Shown piece by piece: positions 3,471 through 59,046 of a stretch of DNA of 64,000 nt; within the stretch, counting starts at the first letter, position 1, and every line of letters starts with the position of its first letter. A program made the position numbers and the translations under genes. The notes beneath the pieces were generated by a model. It made no database searches. It saw only the letters and a list, made by a program, of their open reading frames with translations, and was not told the origin of the DNA. The DNA comes from a virus (lineage: Duplodnaviria; Caudoviricetes): the IMG/VR virus record IMGVR_UViG_3300007280_000474; one strand, written 5' to 3'.

Positions 3471-4353
3471 TCGCGGCATATTAATGTTCGCACACAACAA
3501 CGATGAAATAGATTATTTCAGATTGGCTGTTGTAAATGCTCTCCTCATTCAAAAACATTTAGGTATCAAAGATATAACTGTAGTAACAGACTCACACAGT
3601 CTCAGTTACGCACAAGAACAGTTAGGCGAAGATACAATTAACAAAGCAATCAACAATATTGTACTAAATGAAAAAGACAGAAACTTTAAACGTGCCAACA
3701 TTCGTATATACAAGGATACAAGTCATACAGCAAAAAATCTAAGTTTCTATAATGTGAACAGATGTGATGCTTATGATATATCGCCATACGATGAAACAAT
3801 ACTTATTGACGCAGATTACTTGATACTCAGCGATACACTTAATCAGTGTTGGGGTCATAACGAAGAGTTAATGATGAACTGGAAGTGGCAAGACGTAATG
3901 TTTGAAAGAAAGTTTGAAAGTTTAGACAGACTAAATGACCTAGGGGTAACCATGTATTGGGCAACCGTAGTTTATTTTAGAAAGACACCGTATGTAGAAA
4001 GTTTCTTCAACACTGTAAAGCATGTAAAAGACAACAGTCAATTTTACAGAGACTTGTACAAGTGGCAAGGAAAACTGTACAGAAACGATTACAGTTTTAG
4101 TGTAGCGGCTCATACTATGAGCGGATTTGTAGACAAAGGAATAGCACAACTGCCTACAACATTATATAAAACATTTGACACAGACGATGTACACAGTGCT
4201 ATAAGTGATGACACACTACTGTTGTTATTAGAAAAGCCTCGGAGCCCAGGAGACTTTATGTTAACAAAATGGAGTGGTGTAGATTTACATGTAATGAATA
4301 AATGGGCTATAAATAGAATTAGTAACGGATTATTGGAGCACATGAATGCCTAA
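3454..4353 (+). CDS. GT-A fold nucleotide-diphospho-sugar transferase (GT8-like)
   Basis: SPYDETILIDADY DxD motif; paralogue of 5366..6229. Confidence 0.7.
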   Translation: MKKENSRGILMFAHNNDEIDYFRLAVVNALLIQKHLGIKDITVVTDSHSLSYAQEQLGEDTINKAINNIVLNEKDRNFKRANIRIYKDTSHTAKNLSFYNVNRCDAYDISPYDETILIDADYLILSDTLNQCWGHNEELMMNWKWQDVMFERKFESLDRLNDLGVTMYWATVVYFRKTPYVESFFNTVKHVKDNSQFYRDLYKWQGKLYRNDYSFSVAAHTMSGFVDKGIAQLPTTLYKTFDTDDVHSAISDDTLLLLLEKPRSPGDFMLTKWSGVDLHVMNKWAINRISNGLLEHMNA

Positions 4354-9786: not shown

Positions 9787-12570
9787 ATGAAAAAGTTCTT
9801 AACAATGGCATTGCTGTTGGTGCCTACTATTGTATTTGCACAAGACAAATACTACGACAGAAATCAACTCCCTCAATTAAGTCAAGAAATCTTAGAGCAA
9901 TCACAGTTTGAATTCACTGCTACAGAAGTACCTGTAAGCAAGTTAATACCTGTGCAAACTCAAAGAGTACAAGACTTAAAGAAGGAAGAAAAAAGATTAA
10001 TCAAGGCACAACAAAATACTTATAGGCCTTTGGTTATTGATCAGCAATATTATATTATTGACGGTCATCATAGATACGATGCATTAACTGAATTAAGCAT
10101 AGCAAATGCTAGAGTATTATTAGTTGATGCACCTATAGAAGAAGTGGTAGACGTATTTAAACAATACAGAGATTATACTCCAACGTATGAACCTACTGTT
10201 GAAGAAGTAGTTGTTGTAGGAACTAGAGCAACACTTATGAGAGCAGTAGACAAGCAAATGATGGCAGATGGTATTCTCAGTGTTGTTGATTCAGATGCAT
10301 TAGGAAACTTTCCTGATACGACAGCCGCGGACGCCATTAGGCGTTTATCCGGCGTGAGTGTAGAAAACGATCAAGGCGAAGGACGTTATGTTACTATCAG
10401 AGGTTTAAGTTCAGACTTAAACAGTGTAGCAGTTAATGGTGCTAGTATGGTTGCTCCTGAGAATGGACGTTCAGTTATTATGGACGGCATACCAACAGAG
10501 TTAATGGACAGTATCACAGTTGCAAAAACTTTGACACCTGAAATGGATGCAGACAGCATTGGTGGTAGAATTGAATTCAATACTAAAAAGCCAACTGACT
10601 TAGATGAAATGTTGTTAAAAGTAAAAGTTAGTAGTAAGTTTGCAGAATACACAGACTACGAACATGCTCCAAACTTTAGTGTAACGTATGGTGATAACAT
10701 CACAGACAATACAGCACACATTATGGGCCTAACATACAGTTCAAAGAACATCGAAAGTTATAACAATGAAACTGGCTTTGGCTGGGAAGATGGTTATATG
10801 AATGACGACTTTGAATTACGTTATTATGACCTAACCAGAGAACGTTATGGATTCAGTTACGACATAAACACACTACTAGAAAGTGGTGCTGTAGTTTTTG
10901 CTAACATCATGTACAACCAGTACGAAGAAGATGAAGTACGTTTTAAAAACGAATACGGTAAAATCAAACTTGCTGAAGAACTAACAAATGGATTGTTATC
11001 AAGCAGAGTAAGGCACGATGCTGAAACAAGACAACGATACGAAACTAGAAGTATTGGTGCTGTAAATGTTGGTGCTGAATTTGATATTGCTGATTGGGCA
11101 GTTGATTCACAACTAAGTTATAGTTGGGCAGAAGAGGATGATAGCGACAATGCTGACATCACTTTTAGAAACTATGACAAAGACAACGGTGCATATTTTT
11201 ATTGGGATAATCCAGTAAATCCATACGTTGTGCCTGTAGATACAACTTTGCGTAATCCAGAAAACTTAGAGTTTGATGCTTTTGAAATGTGGAGTAACAT
11301 AAGCAAAGATGAAGAAACTAGTTTTCAAATCAATGCAGACAACGGTAACTGGAAAGTAGGATTCAAGCATAGATCAAGAACTAAAGATGTAGATGATTAT
11401 ATTATTGCATATGAATGGGATGACATGACTATGGCAGACTTTGATTACACAACTGCACCAGGTTGGTTCTTCCCTAATCAAGTGTTCGGTAATCATATGA
11501 CTCCTGAAGCGGCATATAATCTGCGTAATCTTACAGATCAAATGTCAGTAGACTTCAGTGATGACATCAGCAGAGACTTTGTTACTGATGAAACTATTAA
11601 CAGTGTTTATGTACAACGCACAGTTGAATTAGACAACACAACAATTATTGCAGGTGTACGTTATGAGCATACTGACTTTGAAAGTACAGCATACGACCAA
11701 GATGGCAACAGAACTTATGCAGAGAATGTCTATGGCTTTGTTGCTCCTAGTGTAACTGTAAAGCATTGGCTCACAGACAACTGGCAAGTACGTGGTGCAT
11801 TGTGGAGAGGTCTAAGTAGACCAGGATTTAAAGAAACTGCTCCTATTACAGATTATGATGTAGACACATCAGGTGATACAAGTGGTAGCATCGGTAATCC
11901 AAATCTCAAACCATATGAAGCAGATAACTTTGATTTAAGTTTAGAATACTATGGTGAGGGCATGACTTACTTTGCAGTAGGTTACTTCCACAAGAGCATT
12001 GCTAATGCAATTTATCCAACGTATCAACGTAATGGTACATTCAACGGCATCGCATTTAATGATGGTGTTGAAACTTGGATTAATGCAGACGACAGCACAG
12101 TTGATGGTATTGAACTTAATGCACAATATGGCTGGGATAATGGACTATACGTTGCAACAAACTTTACATGGACTGATTCAGAAAGTACATTTAAGTTTGA
12201 TGACGACGCAGAGTTTACTACTCCATTCCGCAAGTTAGCAGACAAGGCTGCAAACATTAACTTTGGATATGACAGCGGTGCTTGGGATATCAGAGTTGCA
12301 GGTAATTACAGAAGTGATTACTTAGATTGGTTAGCAGATGAAGATGGCGACATTGGTGAAGTTAGTGCGAACAACAGTAGATATGTTGATGACTTTATGC
12401 AGTGGGATCTGACTGTTAAGTATGAAGTTAATGACAACTTCACTATCAAAGCAGAAGCAATTAACTTAAACAACAGACCAGAATATTATTATTGGGGTGA
12501 TGAATCACAACTCAGCCAATATGACATGTTTGGCAAATCTTATAGTTTAGGATTTAATTACAAACTGTAA
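9787..12570 (+). CDS. TonB-dependent receptor with N-terminal ParB/Srx-like domain
   Basis: Signal peptide; RPLVIDQQYYIIDGHHR; TonB box EEVVVVG; plug DAIRRLSGVSVENDQGEGRYVTIRGL; GNPNLKPYEADNFD; barrel C-terminal strand YSLGFNYKL. Confidence 0.9.
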   Translation: MKKFLTMALLLVPTIVFAQDKYYDRNQLPQLSQEILEQSQFEFTATEVPVSKLIPVQTQRVQDLKKEEKRLIKAQQNTYRPLVIDQQYYIIDGHHRYDALTELSIANARVLLVDAPIEEVVDVFKQYRDYTPTYEPTVEEVVVVGTRATLMRAVDKQMMADGILSVVDSDALGNFPDTTAADAIRRLSGVSVENDQGEGRYVTIRGLSSDLNSVAVNGASMVAPENGRSVIMDGIPTELMDSITVAKTLTPEMDADSIGGRIEFNTKKPTDLDEMLLKVKVSSKFAEYTDYEHAPNFSVTYGDNITDNTAHIMGLTYSSKNIESYNNETGFGWEDGYMNDDFELRYYDLTRERYGFSYDINTLLESGAVVFANIMYNQYEEDEVRFKNEYGKIKLAEELTNGLLSSRVRHDAETRQRYETRSIGAVNVGAEFDIADWAVDSQLSYSWAEEDDSDNADITFRNYDKDNGAYFYWDNPVNPYVVPVDTTLRNPENLEFDAFEMWSNISKDEETSFQINADNGNWKVGFKHRSRTKDVDDYIIAYEWDDMTMADFDYTTAPGWFFPNQVFGNHMTPEAAYNLRNLTDQMSVDFSDDISRDFVTDETINSVYVQRTVELDNTTIIAGVRYEHTDFESTAYDQDGNRTYAENVYGFVAPSVTVKHWLTDNWQVRGALWRGLSRPGFKETAPITDYDVDTSGDTSGSIGNPNLKPYEADNFDLSLEYYGEGMTYFAVGYFHKSIANAIYPTYQRNGTFNGIAFNDGVETWINADDSTVDGIELNAQYGWDNGLYVATNFTWTDSESTFKFDDDAEFTTPFRKLADKAANINFGYDSGAWDIRVAGNYRSDYLDWLADEDGDIGEVSANNSRYVDDFMQWDLTVKYEVNDNFTIKAEAINLNNRPEYYYWGDESQLSQYDMFGKSYSLGFNYKL

Positions 12571-43439: not shown

Positions 43440-44762
43440 TTAGTCCTCTCTGCTGTATGGTACTGTAATACCAAATGGTGAGGTTGGTGTTGATAAGCCT
43501 CTGCTACCGTGTACAATAAACAATGTATCACAGTAGTTCTCATCTCCCCAACTACCCCATGGGTATCCATCTGTGAACATGATGAACTTCTTAGGCACAA
43601 TGCCTTCGTCCTTCATGTAGTCAAAGCAACAATCAAACTCGGTACCGCCGCCACCTTCGATTTCGTAGTCCATAAACTCGTCCATGTTAGTGTCAGTGAA
43701 TACTTGAGGATTGTGTACTTCTGTATCAAAGCAGAATAAGTGTATCTTGAAGTTAGTGTACTGATCCATAACGCCTTTAACTTCGCTTAAGAAGTCAATT
43801 AGCATGTCGTCAAATATACTACCACTCACATCAAGTGCAATAGCAACATCGATAGTTGTGTCGTAGTCCATACCTGGCAACCAGTAACCACTGTCTGCAC
43901 CTTTACGGCTTTGTGTTCTAAAAGTGTAGTCGTTCTTGATCACACTTTGAATTTGCATAGCAAGTAGTGTTCTCCAATCCAACTGAGGATTGAGGATCTT
44001 GTCCAGCATACGTTTAACGCCACCTGGTAAGTTACCGGCGCCTGCTGCTTTTGCTGCTTGCACTGTAGCACTTTTAAATTCTTGCTTGGCCTTTTCCTTC
44101 TCATCAGCAGTCATTGGGATTGGACCTGCTTTACCATTTTCGCTGTCGTCAGCATCACCATCACCTGCAGGACCGCTACCAGCATCATCGCCATCTTCAC
44201 GTTCCATGTGAATGTCGAAAGATACTTTTTGTATACGACCTTCATCGTCCATTTCTTTGTATATTTCGTCATACACTGCTTCAGAGGTCATGTCCTGATA
44301 CTTGTAATCAAAACATACTTCAATAATCTCTTTACGAATTCGCTTGCCAATCTTAGCAAGTTCAAGTTCTAGATTGATAACGTAATCGTTCGCTACATTC
44401 CAAAGTTGATGTATACGGTCTCCACGTCTATCAGGATCCATATGGTCATATACGCAATGTAGAATCTCATGACCCATAAGCCAAATGCACTCATCTTCTG
44501 TAAGTGCGGCAGTGAAGTGTCTGTTGTAATAGAAATGCTTACCGTCTGTAGCGGCAGTAGGACACCATTCAGTAGCATCAATCAACTTCAAACGTGTAGC
44601 AAGAGCACCAAAGAACGGTGCATTCATAAGCATGTCTACACGAGCTTTGATAAGAATATCTTCTATTTCTACTGAAGTTTTAGTTGTTTGCGGTACATCA
44701 ATAACAGGCTTTGCGTCCTTGTTTACAGATGTCTCGTCTTTTGTTGCGAATGAGTTATCCAT
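43440..44762 (-). CDS. Metallopeptidase-like (DUF2201) plus vWA domain protein
   Basis: TAATDG, HEILH, ANDYVIN, DVSGS MIDAS, GGGT, FTDG. Confidence 0.85.
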   Translation of the reverse strand: MDNSFATKDETSVNKDAKPVIDVPQTTKTSVEIEDILIKARVDMLMNAPFFGALATRLKLIDATEWCPTAATDGKHFYYNRHFTAALTEDECIWLMGHEILHCVYDHMDPDRRGDRIHQLWNVANDYVINLELELAKIGKRIRKEIIEVCFDYKYQDMTSEAVYDEIYKEMDDEGRIQKVSFDIHMEREDGDDAGSGPAGDGDADDSENGKAGPIPMTADEKEKAKQEFKSATVQAAKAAGAGNLPGGVKRMLDKILNPQLDWRTLLAMQIQSVIKNDYTFRTQSRKGADSGYWLPGMDYDTTIDVAIALDVSGSIFDDMLIDFLSEVKGVMDQYTNFKIHLFCFDTEVHNPQVFTDTNMDEFMDYEIEGGGGTEFDCCFDYMKDEGIVPKKFIMFTDGYPWGSWGDENYCDTLFIVHGSRGLSTPTSPFGITVPYSRED

Positions 44763-44793
44763 TTGTTACCTAATTTCCTACTTAATATTGTAT

Positions 44794-44822
44794 ATTATAC
44801 GCTCTTTTGTGGTGTAAGTCAA
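44794..44822 (-). promoter_or_regulatory. Sigma70-type early promoter (vWA gene)
   Basis: TTGACT-N17-TATAAT. Confidence 0.85.
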
Positions 44823-44840
44823 GTACATATTACTTATAAA

Positions 44841-44853
44841 TTTCAATAACTTA
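44841..44853 (+). promoter_or_regulatory. IHF-like site
   Basis: TTTCAATAACTTA (one mismatch to WATCAANNNNTTR); same 12-mer and spacing as at 46887. Confidence 0.5.
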
Positions 44854-44870
44854 CATGCCCTTAATAAGGT

Positions 44871-44943
44871 GGACCTCCCGTTAAGGAGGTCCGTTTGCCC
44901 TGTGCTAGGTAGGGAGTAACATAGGTAGGTGCACAAGGGCAAA
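44871..44943 (-). ncRNA. Candidate structured antisense sRNA / 3'-UTR RNA with anti-RBS loop
   Basis: 12-bp stem with 25-nt loop ACCUACCUAUGUUACUCCCUACCUA, then an 8-bp hairpin containing ACCUCCUUA. Confidence 0.55.
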
Positions 44944-44948
44944 AACCG

Positions 44949-46058
44949 TTATACGATATACTTGAGGTACTTATCGTTGAAAGTAGTCTGTATATCTTTG
45001 TCCAACACCTTACGGAAGTTGAACACGATTTGGTAGTCTTTCATCAATGTCTTAAGAGCAAAGATGACCATTTCAGGTTCAAAGTTGTTGAATGCAAAAC
45101 GAATCATGTTGTTAAGCATTTTGCCGATATTGGTGTCTACCTCACCAACTTCTTTCCATACTTCGTTTAGTTCGTATGCAAGACCGACAGTCAAACTGTA
45201 TTTTGCAGATATCTCACTTGATACCTTCTTGTCCAGTTTAGTGACCTTACCATCAAGTACCTCGGTTGGATTAGGTAGGAACGCCGCAACCTTACGGTGC
45301 TCAGCAAACTTAATTGCCATACCTTCGCCAACTGCACCTGCAAGTTCAGCCATTTGTTCTTTTGCACTTGCATCCTCAAATTCTTCTACATTAAGAATCT
45401 CGCTCACAAAGTTCCATGAACGTGGTGAGGCAAATGCCTGTGAGTTAGACTTTGGATCAAAGTCAAACAAGTCCTGTTTAGCATAAGACAAGTAACCAAC
45501 AACATCAGGGTGAACATCGTTGTTCACAGCCCACTGAGCCCAATCCTCAAAATTGACCTCCATGTTAATGTGTCGGAACCTGTTAGCCAACGGTGCTGGC
45601 ATTCTGTATGTAACACCTCGGTCAGTGTCACGGTTACCAGCCGCTACAATCCTAACATTCTTAGGAAGGGTGTACTGTCCAATCTTACCGTTAAGAACTA
45701 ACTGGTAAGCCGCCGCCTGTACACTTGGAGGAGCAGAGTTAAGTTCATCCAAGAACAATACAATAGTATCGAACTCAGCAGCCTGCTCTGGCGTTGGAAG
45801 GTCCGCTGGGGGAGCCCATTCCATTTGATTAGTTTCCGGGTTACGGAAAGGATATCCACGCAAGTCTGTTGGCTCCATAAGAGCTAGACGCATATCAATC
45901 ATTAAGTTTTTACCAGGAAGAACATTGTATGTAATGTTCTCAATAAGTTCAGACTTACCTATGCCTGGAGCACCCCAAAGGAATATGGGACGTTTTGCTT
46001 TCATTGCTCGAACTACAATTGGTTGTACTTGAGCTGGACGTGTTGTTAATGTTTCCAT
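44949..46058 (-). CDS. MoxR-type AAA+ ATPase
   Basis: GAPGIGKS, LFLDELN, AAGNR, PLANRF, SPRSW. Confidence 0.9.
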   Translation of the reverse strand: METLTTRPAQVQPIVVRAMKAKRPIFLWGAPGIGKSELIENITYNVLPGKNLMIDMRLALMEPTDLRGYPFRNPETNQMEWAPPADLPTPEQAAEFDTIVLFLDELNSAPPSVQAAAYQLVLNGKIGQYTLPKNVRIVAAGNRDTDRGVTYRMPAPLANRFRHINMEVNFEDWAQWAVNNDVHPDVVGYLSYAKQDLFDFDPKSNSQAFASPRSWNFVSEILNVEEFEDASAKEQMAELAGAVGEGMAIKFAEHRKVAAFLPNPTEVLDGKVTKLDKKVSSEISAKYSLTVGLAYELNEVWKEVGEVDTNIGKMLNNMIRFAFNNFEPEMVIFALKTLMKDYQIVFNFRKVLDKDIQTTFNDKYLKYIV

Positions 46059-46093
46059 TGTTTACCTACCTATTTAATTTAACCTACCCTAGT

Positions 46094-46122
46094 ATTATAC
46101 TAAGAGTTCCTACCAAAGTCAA
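46094..46122 (-). promoter_or_regulatory. Sigma70-type early promoter (MoxR gene)
   Basis: TTGACT-N17-TATAAT. Confidence 0.85.
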
Positions 46123-46297
46123 CCGAAACTTTATACATTTTTTCAAAAATATGTATTGCTTCTTCACGACTCAACAGTTCTTCTTGATACGCACTACGCT
46201 CTTCACAGTTAAGTGTGTACCACTCATTAAAGTTGCTTTCGACTGAAATACCATCAATCCACTTGAATTCAAATTGTTCTGCCATCATAATCCCCAT
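46100..46297 (-). CDS. Small hypothetical protein
   Basis: Start overlaps the upstream TAA. Confidence 0.55.
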   Translation of the reverse strand: MGIMMAEQFEFKWIDGISVESNFNEWYTLNCEERSAYQEELLSREEAIHIFEKMYKVSVDFGRNS

Positions 46298-46837: not shown

Positions 46838-46866
46838 ATTATACGGATATATTGGGGTAAAGTCAA
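46838..46866 (-). promoter_or_regulatory. Sigma70-type early promoter
   Basis: TTGACT-N17-TATAAT. Confidence 0.85.
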
Positions 46867-52802: not shown

Positions 52803-52831
52803 ATTATACGCTCTTTAATAGTTAAAGTCAA
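52803..52831 (-). promoter_or_regulatory. Sigma70-type promoter (queE)
   Basis: TTGACT-N17-TATAAT. Confidence 0.85.
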
Positions 52832-57839: not shown

Positions 57840-59046
57840 ATTTTTGCCTTGCTACATGCTTTCTGAAACCCCAATTATCTCTGAGCCATCTAGCACCTTT
57901 GCCTTCCAGTATGTCCATTGTCCTATCAATAGTGCCATTCTGGTAGTCGCTAATTTTACCAATATTATACTTGGAAAGATCGTTTGTGTCAATACTTTTT
58001 AACATATTATCTAGTTTTTGTACTGCGTCATCGATGCTCCAAGGTACATACATATGGTGTCCGTTGTTTGCAAACACTTCTGGGAAACTTCTGTAAGCAG
58101 GATATAAGGTAAGTGTACCCATAGTGTCTGCTTCGCTTACAGTGTTGCTTACCCAATCTTGTAACGCACAATTAAATAGCACTTTACTATCTGCTAACAA
58201 ATTGTAGTAGTCATTCTTTTTAAGACCTGTGTAAACTCTAAAGTTTGCAGTCTTTGTCTTGCCTAAATCCCATGCATCTTGTAAGTCCATTGCACGTTTT
58301 ACATACCGTGGATCATTGCTTTTAAGTTCTGGGTGTCCACAAAATATAGCAAATTCAACATCTGGATCTATTTTGTAATAGGCTTCTGCTAAATCCATAT
58401 AAAAGTGTGGTTGCTTCTCGTCGTCCCAACGTGCGGCAAAGCCTACACGATTTGATCTATCATGTAGTAATGCAGGAGCAGGAACACGTTCCTTAACTTC
58501 TTCTTTACCATATGGTAGACCTGAAACATAAATTGGACACTTGAATCCTGCAATTCTTAGGTGTGCAACAAATTCTTCACTTGCAACAATAATACCATCT
58601 ACAAACTCATCAACCATTTGCTCATATCTACGCATCCAACTAAACATGCCTTCTCTGATTAAGAAGTCATCTGGGTCAGTAGTTTGTGCAAGGAACCTAA
58701 GGTATACTTTGGGTCTGTATTCCTTTGGTGATTGATCCATAATGTAAGGAAGGCATTCAAGTCCTGGTGTAAACATATCTTCATAAAAGATAACATCGTC
58801 ACTACTAATCTCGCCATTCTTCATTTTCTGTACAAGACTCATAGTCTGACTTAAACTGTAATAACTACGTCCATGAGCATCCAACACACTACCAGTTACG
58901 ATAGCCTTACTGTTGTCCAGTTCCTCACCAGTGATAATCTCATAGTCAATACCACGTGCTTTGAATACACGTTCATTCCAATCTTGCAACTGCAATGTAT
59001 AACGTGCCTCATAACTTTCGAGGCCCATGTAATATAGTTTACGCAT
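57832..59046 (-). CDS. GT-B fold glycosyltransferase (start moved to ATG 59046)
   Basis: FAARWDDEKQP, QDWVSNTVSEA, YRSFPE. Confidence 0.7.
   Translation of the reverse strand: MRKLYYMGLESYEARYTLQLQDWNERVFKARGIDYEIITGEELDNSKAIVTGSVLDAHGRSYYSLSQTMSLVQKMKNGEISSDDVIFYEDMFTPGLECLPYIMDQSPKEYRPKVYLRFLAQTTDPDDFLIREGMFSWMRRYEQMVDEFVDGIIVASEEFVAHLRIAGFKCPIYVSGLPYGKEEVKERVPAPALLHDRSNRVGFAARWDDEKQPHFYMDLAEAYYKIDPDVEFAIFCGHPELKSNDPRYVKRAMDLQDAWDLGKTKTANFRVYTGLKKNDYYNLLADSKVLFNCALQDWVSNTVSEADTMGTLTLYPAYRSFPEVFANNGHHMYVPWSIDDAVQKLDNMLKSIDTNDLSKYNIGKISDYQNGTIDRTMDILEGKGARWLRDNWGFRKHVARQKYE

Follow-up and report, generated by a model that had tools for sequence, protein, structure and literature searches.

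The message of a MoxR/AAA_5-type ATPase gene in an uncultured marine jumbo phage carries, directly after its stop codon, a conserved RNA hairpin whose 25-nt pyrimidine loop is complementary to the leader of the same message, including the RBS region, far beyond chance. The reading that we prefer, to which we give a probability of about 0.55, is that this 3'UTR element pairs with the leader of its own mRNA, masks the SD and limits the translation of the message that carries it.

A structured RNA behind the MoxR stop codon

In the window, which is the whole 64,000-nt stretch of phage DNA analyzed here (IMG/VR record IMGVR_UViG_3300007280_000474), the MoxR gene (44949..46058, minus strand) encodes 369 aa and ends in UAA. 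A DUF2201 vWA/metallopeptidase gene lies downstream, and glycine-zipper and FabA-like genes lie upstream. The preliminary description of this DNA had placed three neighboring genes behind sigma70 promoters, and such promoters, each an 11/12 match, indeed stand in series at 46866, 46122, and 44822, one each for the glycine-zipper, MoxR, and vWA genes. The promoter of the MoxR unit (TTGACT, 17 nt, TATAAT; 46094..46122, minus strand) occupies the same position in all related loci. MoxR is a monocistronic unit consisting of a promoter, a leader of about 32 nt, the coding sequence, the anti-RBS hairpin, and a terminator. No internal promoter was evident just upstream of the MoxR stop on reading the sequence, and a tRNA/tmRNA scan returned none. 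Further matches to TTGAC-N17-TATAAT were seen on the minus strand at 52831, 57992, and 61987; the leader at 52831 showed no complementarity to the loop (−4.1 kcal/mol), and the matches at 57992 and 61987 apparently lie within coding sequence.

The conserved hairpin begins 5 nt past the MoxR UAA. Its 5' arm (44931..44943, minus strand), which contains one bulged U, pairs with the 3' arm (44894..44905, minus strand) in a 12-bp stem (arms of 13 and 12 nt; 44943–44931 with 44905–44894) that closes the 25-nt loop ACCUACCUAUGUUACUCCCUACCUA (44906..44930, minus strand). The 111-nt region folded with −36.9 kcal/mol (z = −3.6 against shuffles), and the coordinates, stem, and loop given in the preliminary description were all correct.

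To place the hairpin among related phages, a MoxR protein search was used, which yielded 80 related loci on marine viral contigs; CheckV estimated these contigs at 9–24% of their genomes, indicating phages of roughly 350 kb. The hairpin was present directly 3' of the MoxR stop in about 45 of the 80 loci, always 0–30 nt past the stop and ahead of the terminator, and a covariance model search found exactly one copy in the 64-kb window and one per locus. The stem was assessed in cmsearch alignments made with a covariance model from a 3-sequence seed; a MAFFT alignment of the hairpin left the 3' arms out of register. In these model-based alignments, compensatory changes were observed in all eight modelled pairs, and 96–98% of cells were paired. 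When the partner was slid by 1–3 columns, 22–54% were paired, and none of 500 shuffles reached the observed values. The hairpin that had been proposed from the window is thus both conserved and covarying in related phages. Several of the stem pairs are G-U pairs, which would be C-A mismatches on the opposite strand; because they fit the MoxR-sense strand only, the selected molecule is the MoxR-sense RNA. A separate candidate, in which the antisense of the loop is the leader of a plus-strand gene, was ruled out, since no ORF follows and the stem G-U pairs fit the minus strand only.

The loop was near-invariant across lineages (consensus CCUAC..(G)UUACUCC..CUAC..CCUA), although the MoxR proteins are 65–88% identical and the stems are wholly different between lineages. 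In an exact-word scan of the viral collection, 36 of the 77 matches to a 15-mer of the loop were the hairpin (new or overlapping), as were all 25 matches to a 17-mer of a sister loop type. Rfam 15 gave no match, to the C4 family or any other, at the gathering score for the window or at E <= 10 for 44700–46200, and no near DNA match to the window was found among GenBank phages. The closest isolate was Pseudomonas phage PA5oct, whose MoxR protein is 50% identical and whose gene is followed by a plain terminator only; neither the hairpin element nor a complementary leader was found at its MoxR locus. These results establish the hairpin as a genuine RNA structure under selection on the MoxR-sense strand, and it is a new, uncatalogued structured RNA family.

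Two variants of the architecture were noted. In seven loci (L026, L027, L168, L170, L175, L185, and L189), a mini-hairpin is inserted in the 5' half of the loop, where it replaces the first CCUAC, and the loop part GUUACUCCUACAACCUA is still single-stranded. In two others (L058:4077-4141 and L069:2556-2622), the anti-RBS hairpin is nested in a longer stem that forms the U-tailed terminator.

A second, GC-rich hairpin of 9 bp with the tail ACCUUAUUAA follows 1 nt past the first one (44871..44892, minus strand), and its tail is followed by the consensus promoter of the downstream gene. Most relatives have an unrelated GC-rich hairpin here with 5–8 U behind it, an intrinsic terminator. The window belongs to a subgroup with the tail (C)ACCUU(A/U)U, and the terminator scan made no call in the window, where the 9-bp stem is present with ACCUUAUUAA behind it. 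The most plausible reading of the second hairpin is a MoxR terminator that is degenerate or leaky in the window. The preliminary description had found neither hairpin to carry a U-tract, which holds for the second hairpin in the window and in some relatives but not in most. It had also pointed to the 16S anti-SD sequence in the second hairpin; the hairpin does exist and does contain ACCUCCUUA, but this sequence is not conserved and relatives have a terminator there, so that a 16S anti-SD mimic was ruled out.

With regard to expression, metatranscriptome contigs from four studies cover the loop region and part of the gene in several relatives, and one exact 168-nt RNA-library contig spans 44902–45069. 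These contigs give no ends or strand and may derive from DNA, and they are at most compatible with transcription.

Complementarity between the loop and the MoxR leader

The first 10 nt of the loop (ACCUACCUAU) are the exact complement of AUAGGUAGGU (46073–46064, minus strand), the RBS region 5 nt from the MoxR AUG. Further along the loop, CCCUACC pairs over 7 bp with GGGUAGG (46089–46083, minus strand), which adjoins or lies at the predicted 5' end of the mRNA, and the two sites are colinear and antiparallel. The two-part duplex had an energy of −25.9 kcal/mol compared with −10.9 ± 3.1 for shuffled leaders, of which 0.05% reached the native value. When the loop was slid over both strands of the 64 kb (31,980 windows; mean −6.6, sd 3.4), the MoxR leader ranked first, the antisense of the element itself excepted. 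The two-part pairing is therefore far beyond chance, and the loop is, judged by its complementarity, an anti-RBS sequence. Both the 10-nt complement to the MoxR RBS and the match of CCUACC with a second leader element in the same order had been noticed in the preliminary description, and both were confirmed. An 11-bp match to the loop at 11291–11301 was set aside, as it lies apparently in a coding region, judging from the surrounding sequence.

The comparison was extended to the relatives by scoring contiguous helices; RNAduplex whole-loop scans of the 7-kb loci were noisy, the MoxR leader ranking 1–9 among the peaks. In all 38 non-redundant loci, a contiguous helix of 7–12 bp was found between the loop and its own MoxR leader, ending 0–9 nt from the AUG in almost all of them. 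The partners differ from lineage to lineage: leader GGAGUAACAU faces loop AUGUUACUCC in L006, AGGAGUAGUA faces UACUACUCCU in L017, GGAGUGAUGUA faces UACAUCACUCC in L023 (three double changes compared with the common type), GGUAGGAG faces CUCCUACC in L016 and L024, GUAGGAGUAAUU faces AGUUACUCCUAC in the L031 group (12 bp including one G-U pair), and AGUUAGGAGC(A/G) faces UGCUCCUAACU in L058 and L069, the compensatory change of L058 joining this loop to leader AGUUAGGAGCA. A G-U position in the loop–leader helix is kept by whole clades. In a permutation test on 19 clade representatives, native loop–leader pairs scored 415 compared with 365 ± 11 for permuted pairs (p about 3e-5), and a second permutation set gave p = 6e-5 for MoxR, with shared ancestry only partly corrected for in both. 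As a control, the 3' flank of the vWA gene was scored against the leader of the same gene and was at chance (mean score 14 vs 22 for MoxR). The lineage-specific double changes and the excess of native over permuted pairs argue that the loop and the MoxR leader co-evolve across phage lineages, which the preliminary description had named as a way of checking its proposal.

In distant MoxR loci that lack the hairpin, a complement of the leader was found directly at the stop codon. There, UAGUUCUCCUGCUAGG (also UUCUCCUGCU) is opposed to leader AGCAGGAGAA, and UAAUCCUGGU and UAAUCCUAGU are opposed to leaders CAGGAUUA and AUUAGGAUUA with compensatory differences (UAAUCCU(G/A)GU); in L071, a small hairpin has the loop UCCUAGU opposite the leader ACUAGGA. 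The complement at the stop in hairpin-less loci points to 5'–3' pairing of the same message as a likely arrangement there too, the recurring principle being a MoxR message whose 3' end is antisense to its 5' end.

Two further patterns were seen behind MoxR genes. In L050, L055, L057, L065, L067, and L070, an invariant UAGUUCUCCUGCUAGG runs from the MoxR stop codon, unstructured and followed by the terminator, with a 6–10 bp complement to the RBS of the same locus, AGCAGGAGAA or CAGGAGAA. In L066, L068, L072, and L079, the first 60 nt past the MoxR stop hold a conserved GCUAGUCAC in a tiny hairpin loop and then a U-tailed hairpin, GGAGGCAGG..CCGUAAG.CCUCC; this 3'UTR pattern had no complement in the leader.

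Hairpins that are recognized by proteins likewise tend to combine an invariant loop with a variable stem. The hairpin might accordingly be a site for a protein or for RNA polymerase (antitermination), a processing site, or a 3'-end stabilization site, its likeness to an anti-SD sequence being a by-product of pyrimidine-rich recognition. The constant position of the element just upstream of the terminator, and its nesting in the terminator stem of L058 and L069, would suit such a site, which nevertheless leaves unexplained the joint change of loop and RBS in L017, L023, L058, and the window clade, the leader complement at the stop codon of hairpin-less relatives, and the rank of the MoxR leader as the best match in 64 kb. 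We regard such a site as quite unlikely. Covariation of loop and leader could in principle also arise at the DNA level, where inverted operator copies (with looping across the gene) or recombination sites would co-vary as the specificity of a protein drifts, and words of the TAGGTAGG type do occur three times in the promoter and leader and twice in the loop. Such DNA sites are very improbable: the 3' copy occupies the loop of a stem whose covariation includes G-U pairs valid on one strand only, a G-U position in the loop–leader helix persists throughout whole clades, the 5' copy falls on the SD at an SD-like distance from the AUG, and the arrangement is without exception antisense and inside the transcript.

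Other candidate partners of the loop

The preliminary description had proposed that a 3'UTR-derived antisense RNA switches off three early genes. In such a scheme, a stable fragment made of the hairpin and the terminator would act in trans on the MoxR, vWA, glycine-zipper, and lineage-specific RNAs and would shut down or coordinate a small set of early genes, which is compatible with action in cis. In the window, the glycine-zipper RBS GGAGUAAC (46816–46809, minus strand), a candidate secondary (trans) target, is the exact 8-mer complement of the loop centre as had been stated, but the energy of its leader (−13.1 kcal/mol) is unremarkable against the window background. The 6 + 5 nt match to the vWA leader (44763..44793, minus strand) is likewise present but weak (−12.2 kcal/mol) and loosely conserved. 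Each of the two scores falls roughly in the top few per cent of random windows and is unremarkable singly; leaders of just −12 to −13 kcal/mol speak against a trans-acting RNA, and so does the general likeness of GGAG-type RBSs to one another.

Among the relatives, the evidence on action in trans points both ways. The vWA RBSs of many relatives match their own loop over 7–10 bp, even where the vWA gene stands >1 kb away behind inserted genes, as a trans-acting RNA would allow. This leader nevertheless follows the loop only weakly (p = 0.024 compared with 6e-5 for MoxR in the same set, ancestry again being partly corrected for), the covariation is absent in L023, L028, and L058, and the loops of L006, L007, L010, and L023 match MoxR alone. 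The RBSs of upstream genes of glycine-zipper size (~160 aa) match the loop in the window, L001, L002, the L031 group, and L058; in L058, both extra targets follow the unusual GCUCC loop, the upstream gene sharing GGAGC. In the window clade, the loop centre GUUACUCC is conserved although it has no partner in the MoxR leader, and it matches the glycine-zipper RBS in the window, L001, and L002, which hints at additional trans targets. Of the three-gene early regulon, then, the MoxR leader stands, whereas the vWA and glycine-zipper leaders are weak in the window and several lineages have MoxR only. Such a regulon is possible; MoxR is the universal partner.

Two observations were made around the vWA gene itself. 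In L031–L042 and L051, at about 4185–4195, UAGGUUGAC overlaps the −35 box of the vWA promoter; it is a recurrent strong predicted partner of the AACCUA part of the loop and would be present only in read-through transcripts. In L031 and L051, 70 nt past the vWA stop, CUCCUAC faces the vWA RBS GUAGGAG over 7 bp, and this 3' flank may be a second, weaker anti-RBS arrangement.

A partner of a different kind was found in relatives of the L011 clade, where (C)UAGG(G)UAGGGAGUAAC stands at the end of a large tail-fibre-like late gene, right before a covarying, U-tailed terminator (L164:1-2163; L165–L167, gene end plus about 60 nt; L097:11440-11500; L112). This late-gene 3'UTR site is a perfect complement of the loop over 13–17 nt, with no start codon behind it, and is a better partner of the loop than the MoxR leader. 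Pairing in cis is impossible here, and the complement (L164–L167 and L112) can pair only in trans; judged by its complementarity, it could be a partner or sponge RNA. It leaves room for action in trans and for a sponge-like network. No homologue of the late-gene complement was found in the window, and a search of five relatives' contigs (9–24% of the genomes) for a second copy of the loop complement returned only the element's own antisense. In addition, L090 (9566–9633) and L103, which are short contigs that may or may not belong to MoxR phages, carry the same 17-mer, UAGGUAGGGAGUAACAU, between the portal gene and the next gene, after a small hairpin and about 45 nt upstream of the SD of that next gene.

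Taken with a layout of seed and terminator like that of known 3'UTR-derived small RNAs, these matches make a trans-acting RNA possible, but we consider it distinctly less probable than pairing within the MoxR message. A wider scheme, in which a small RNA–RNA network of the phage centers on the loop and serves as an RNA-only temporal switch in a giant phage, appears unlikely. Early in infection, the loop would mask the MoxR RBS and partly the vWA and glycine-zipper RBSs, and late in infection, abundant structural-gene mRNAs with this "RBS mimic" just before the terminator would titrate the loop or become its targets.

Proposed self-repression and its relation to known systems

From the structure, conservation, complementarity, and co-evolution described above, we infer that the loop pairs with the leader in vivo, within one molecule, and that this pairing represses MoxR. 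The covarying stem would present the 25-nt loop in single-stranded form in the 3'UTR of the MoxR mRNA, and the loop would base-pair with the short 5' leader of the same mRNA at both the SD/RBS region and the motif near the 5' end. Such pairing would occlude 30S binding and would possibly make a double-stranded RNase substrate. As soon as the 3' end of the message exists, the translation of MoxR would be limited, so that self-repression would be built into a gene with a consensus promoter and a strong RBS, and the second hairpin, weakened in this phage, would terminate the unit. The overlap with the SD is what suggests repression rather than stabilization as in hbs. A 17-bp two-part helix within a closed 25-nt loop would be topologically strained.

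The closest analogue is icaR of Staphylococcus aureus, in which an anti-SD motif in the 3'UTR pairs with the SD of the same mRNA and represses it; the pairing was shown experimentally to block the formation of the initiation complex and to make an RNase III substrate, and the authors called their case a singular example (PMC3868564). As in icaR, the phage element has a pyrimidine-rich anti-SD-like motif in the 3'UTR of the very mRNA that it would regulate (19–43 nt past the MoxR stop, upstream of the hairpin at the terminator position), with complementarity to the SD region of that mRNA beyond chance. Unlike icaR, whose 3'UTR is about 390 nt long, the phage has a short covarying hairpin right past the stop that displays the motif in its loop; the predicted pairing is in two parts (SD and 5' end), and the element is conserved and co-evolving across a large family of uncultured phages. 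The two share no sequence homology. In B. subtilis, anti-SD-like sequences located hundreds of nucleotides downstream strongly repress translation and are depleted from endogenous genes, which suggests that selection normally acts against them (PMC12697547), and for hbs a 5'/3'-UTR interaction is reported to be linked to the control of ribonuclease action on the mRNA (PMC5737220). The likeness to these cases is that intramolecular pairing of distant regions with the 5' leader or RBS alters translation or decay; the anti-SD sequences depleted in B. subtilis differ from the phage one, which is positively conserved. The icaR precedent and the effect of distant anti-SD sequences (PMC3868564, PMC12697547) agree with the proposed repression in cis.

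The preliminary description had instead drawn an analogy to the c4 RNA of phage P1, which is functional at most. The c4 RNAs of P1 and P7, like the CI RNA of P4, are phage-encoded and leave segments exposed that pair with two sites on a target, an RBS among them; c4 is cut out of the 5' region of its operon, and its downstream targets control an antirepressor and immunity. The phage element resembles c4 in having two exposed segments for two target sites, one of them masking an RBS, and in that regulator and target come from one transcript, a likeness of mechanism and not of descent. It differs in being a 3'UTR hairpin downstream, not upstream, of its target, in a lytic-type gene unit, and it has no Rfam match.

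CpxQ and SroC are small RNAs derived from 3'UTRs that share the terminator of the mRNA. CisR, another 3'UTR-derived small RNA, inhibits a CTXphi phage mRNA (PMC13250501). The phage element is similar to these three in its conserved seed immediately upstream of the terminator of the parental mRNA and in its potential to act in trans on RBSs; unlike theirs, its seed lies in a large hairpin loop and not in a linear 5' segment, and its best-supported target is the parental mRNA itself.

No earlier description of the phage element was found in the literature, and very few cases of pairing between a 3'UTR and the RBS of the same message have been documented in bacterial-type mRNAs. What is new here is an anti-RBS sequence displayed in the loop of a covarying hairpin, its predicted contact in two parts, one at the SD and one at the 5' end, and the breadth of conservation and co-evolution in uncultured marine jumbo phages. 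The natural variation amounts in effect to a compensatory-mutation experiment carried out in dozens of uncultured marine giant-phage lineages. With about 50 nt for the hairpin and about 35 nt for the leader, the element is compact; in jumbo phages, where little is known of post-transcriptional control, it stands as a clear candidate for it. It marks the phage MoxR–vWA pair as a module whose dosage would be tightly controlled.
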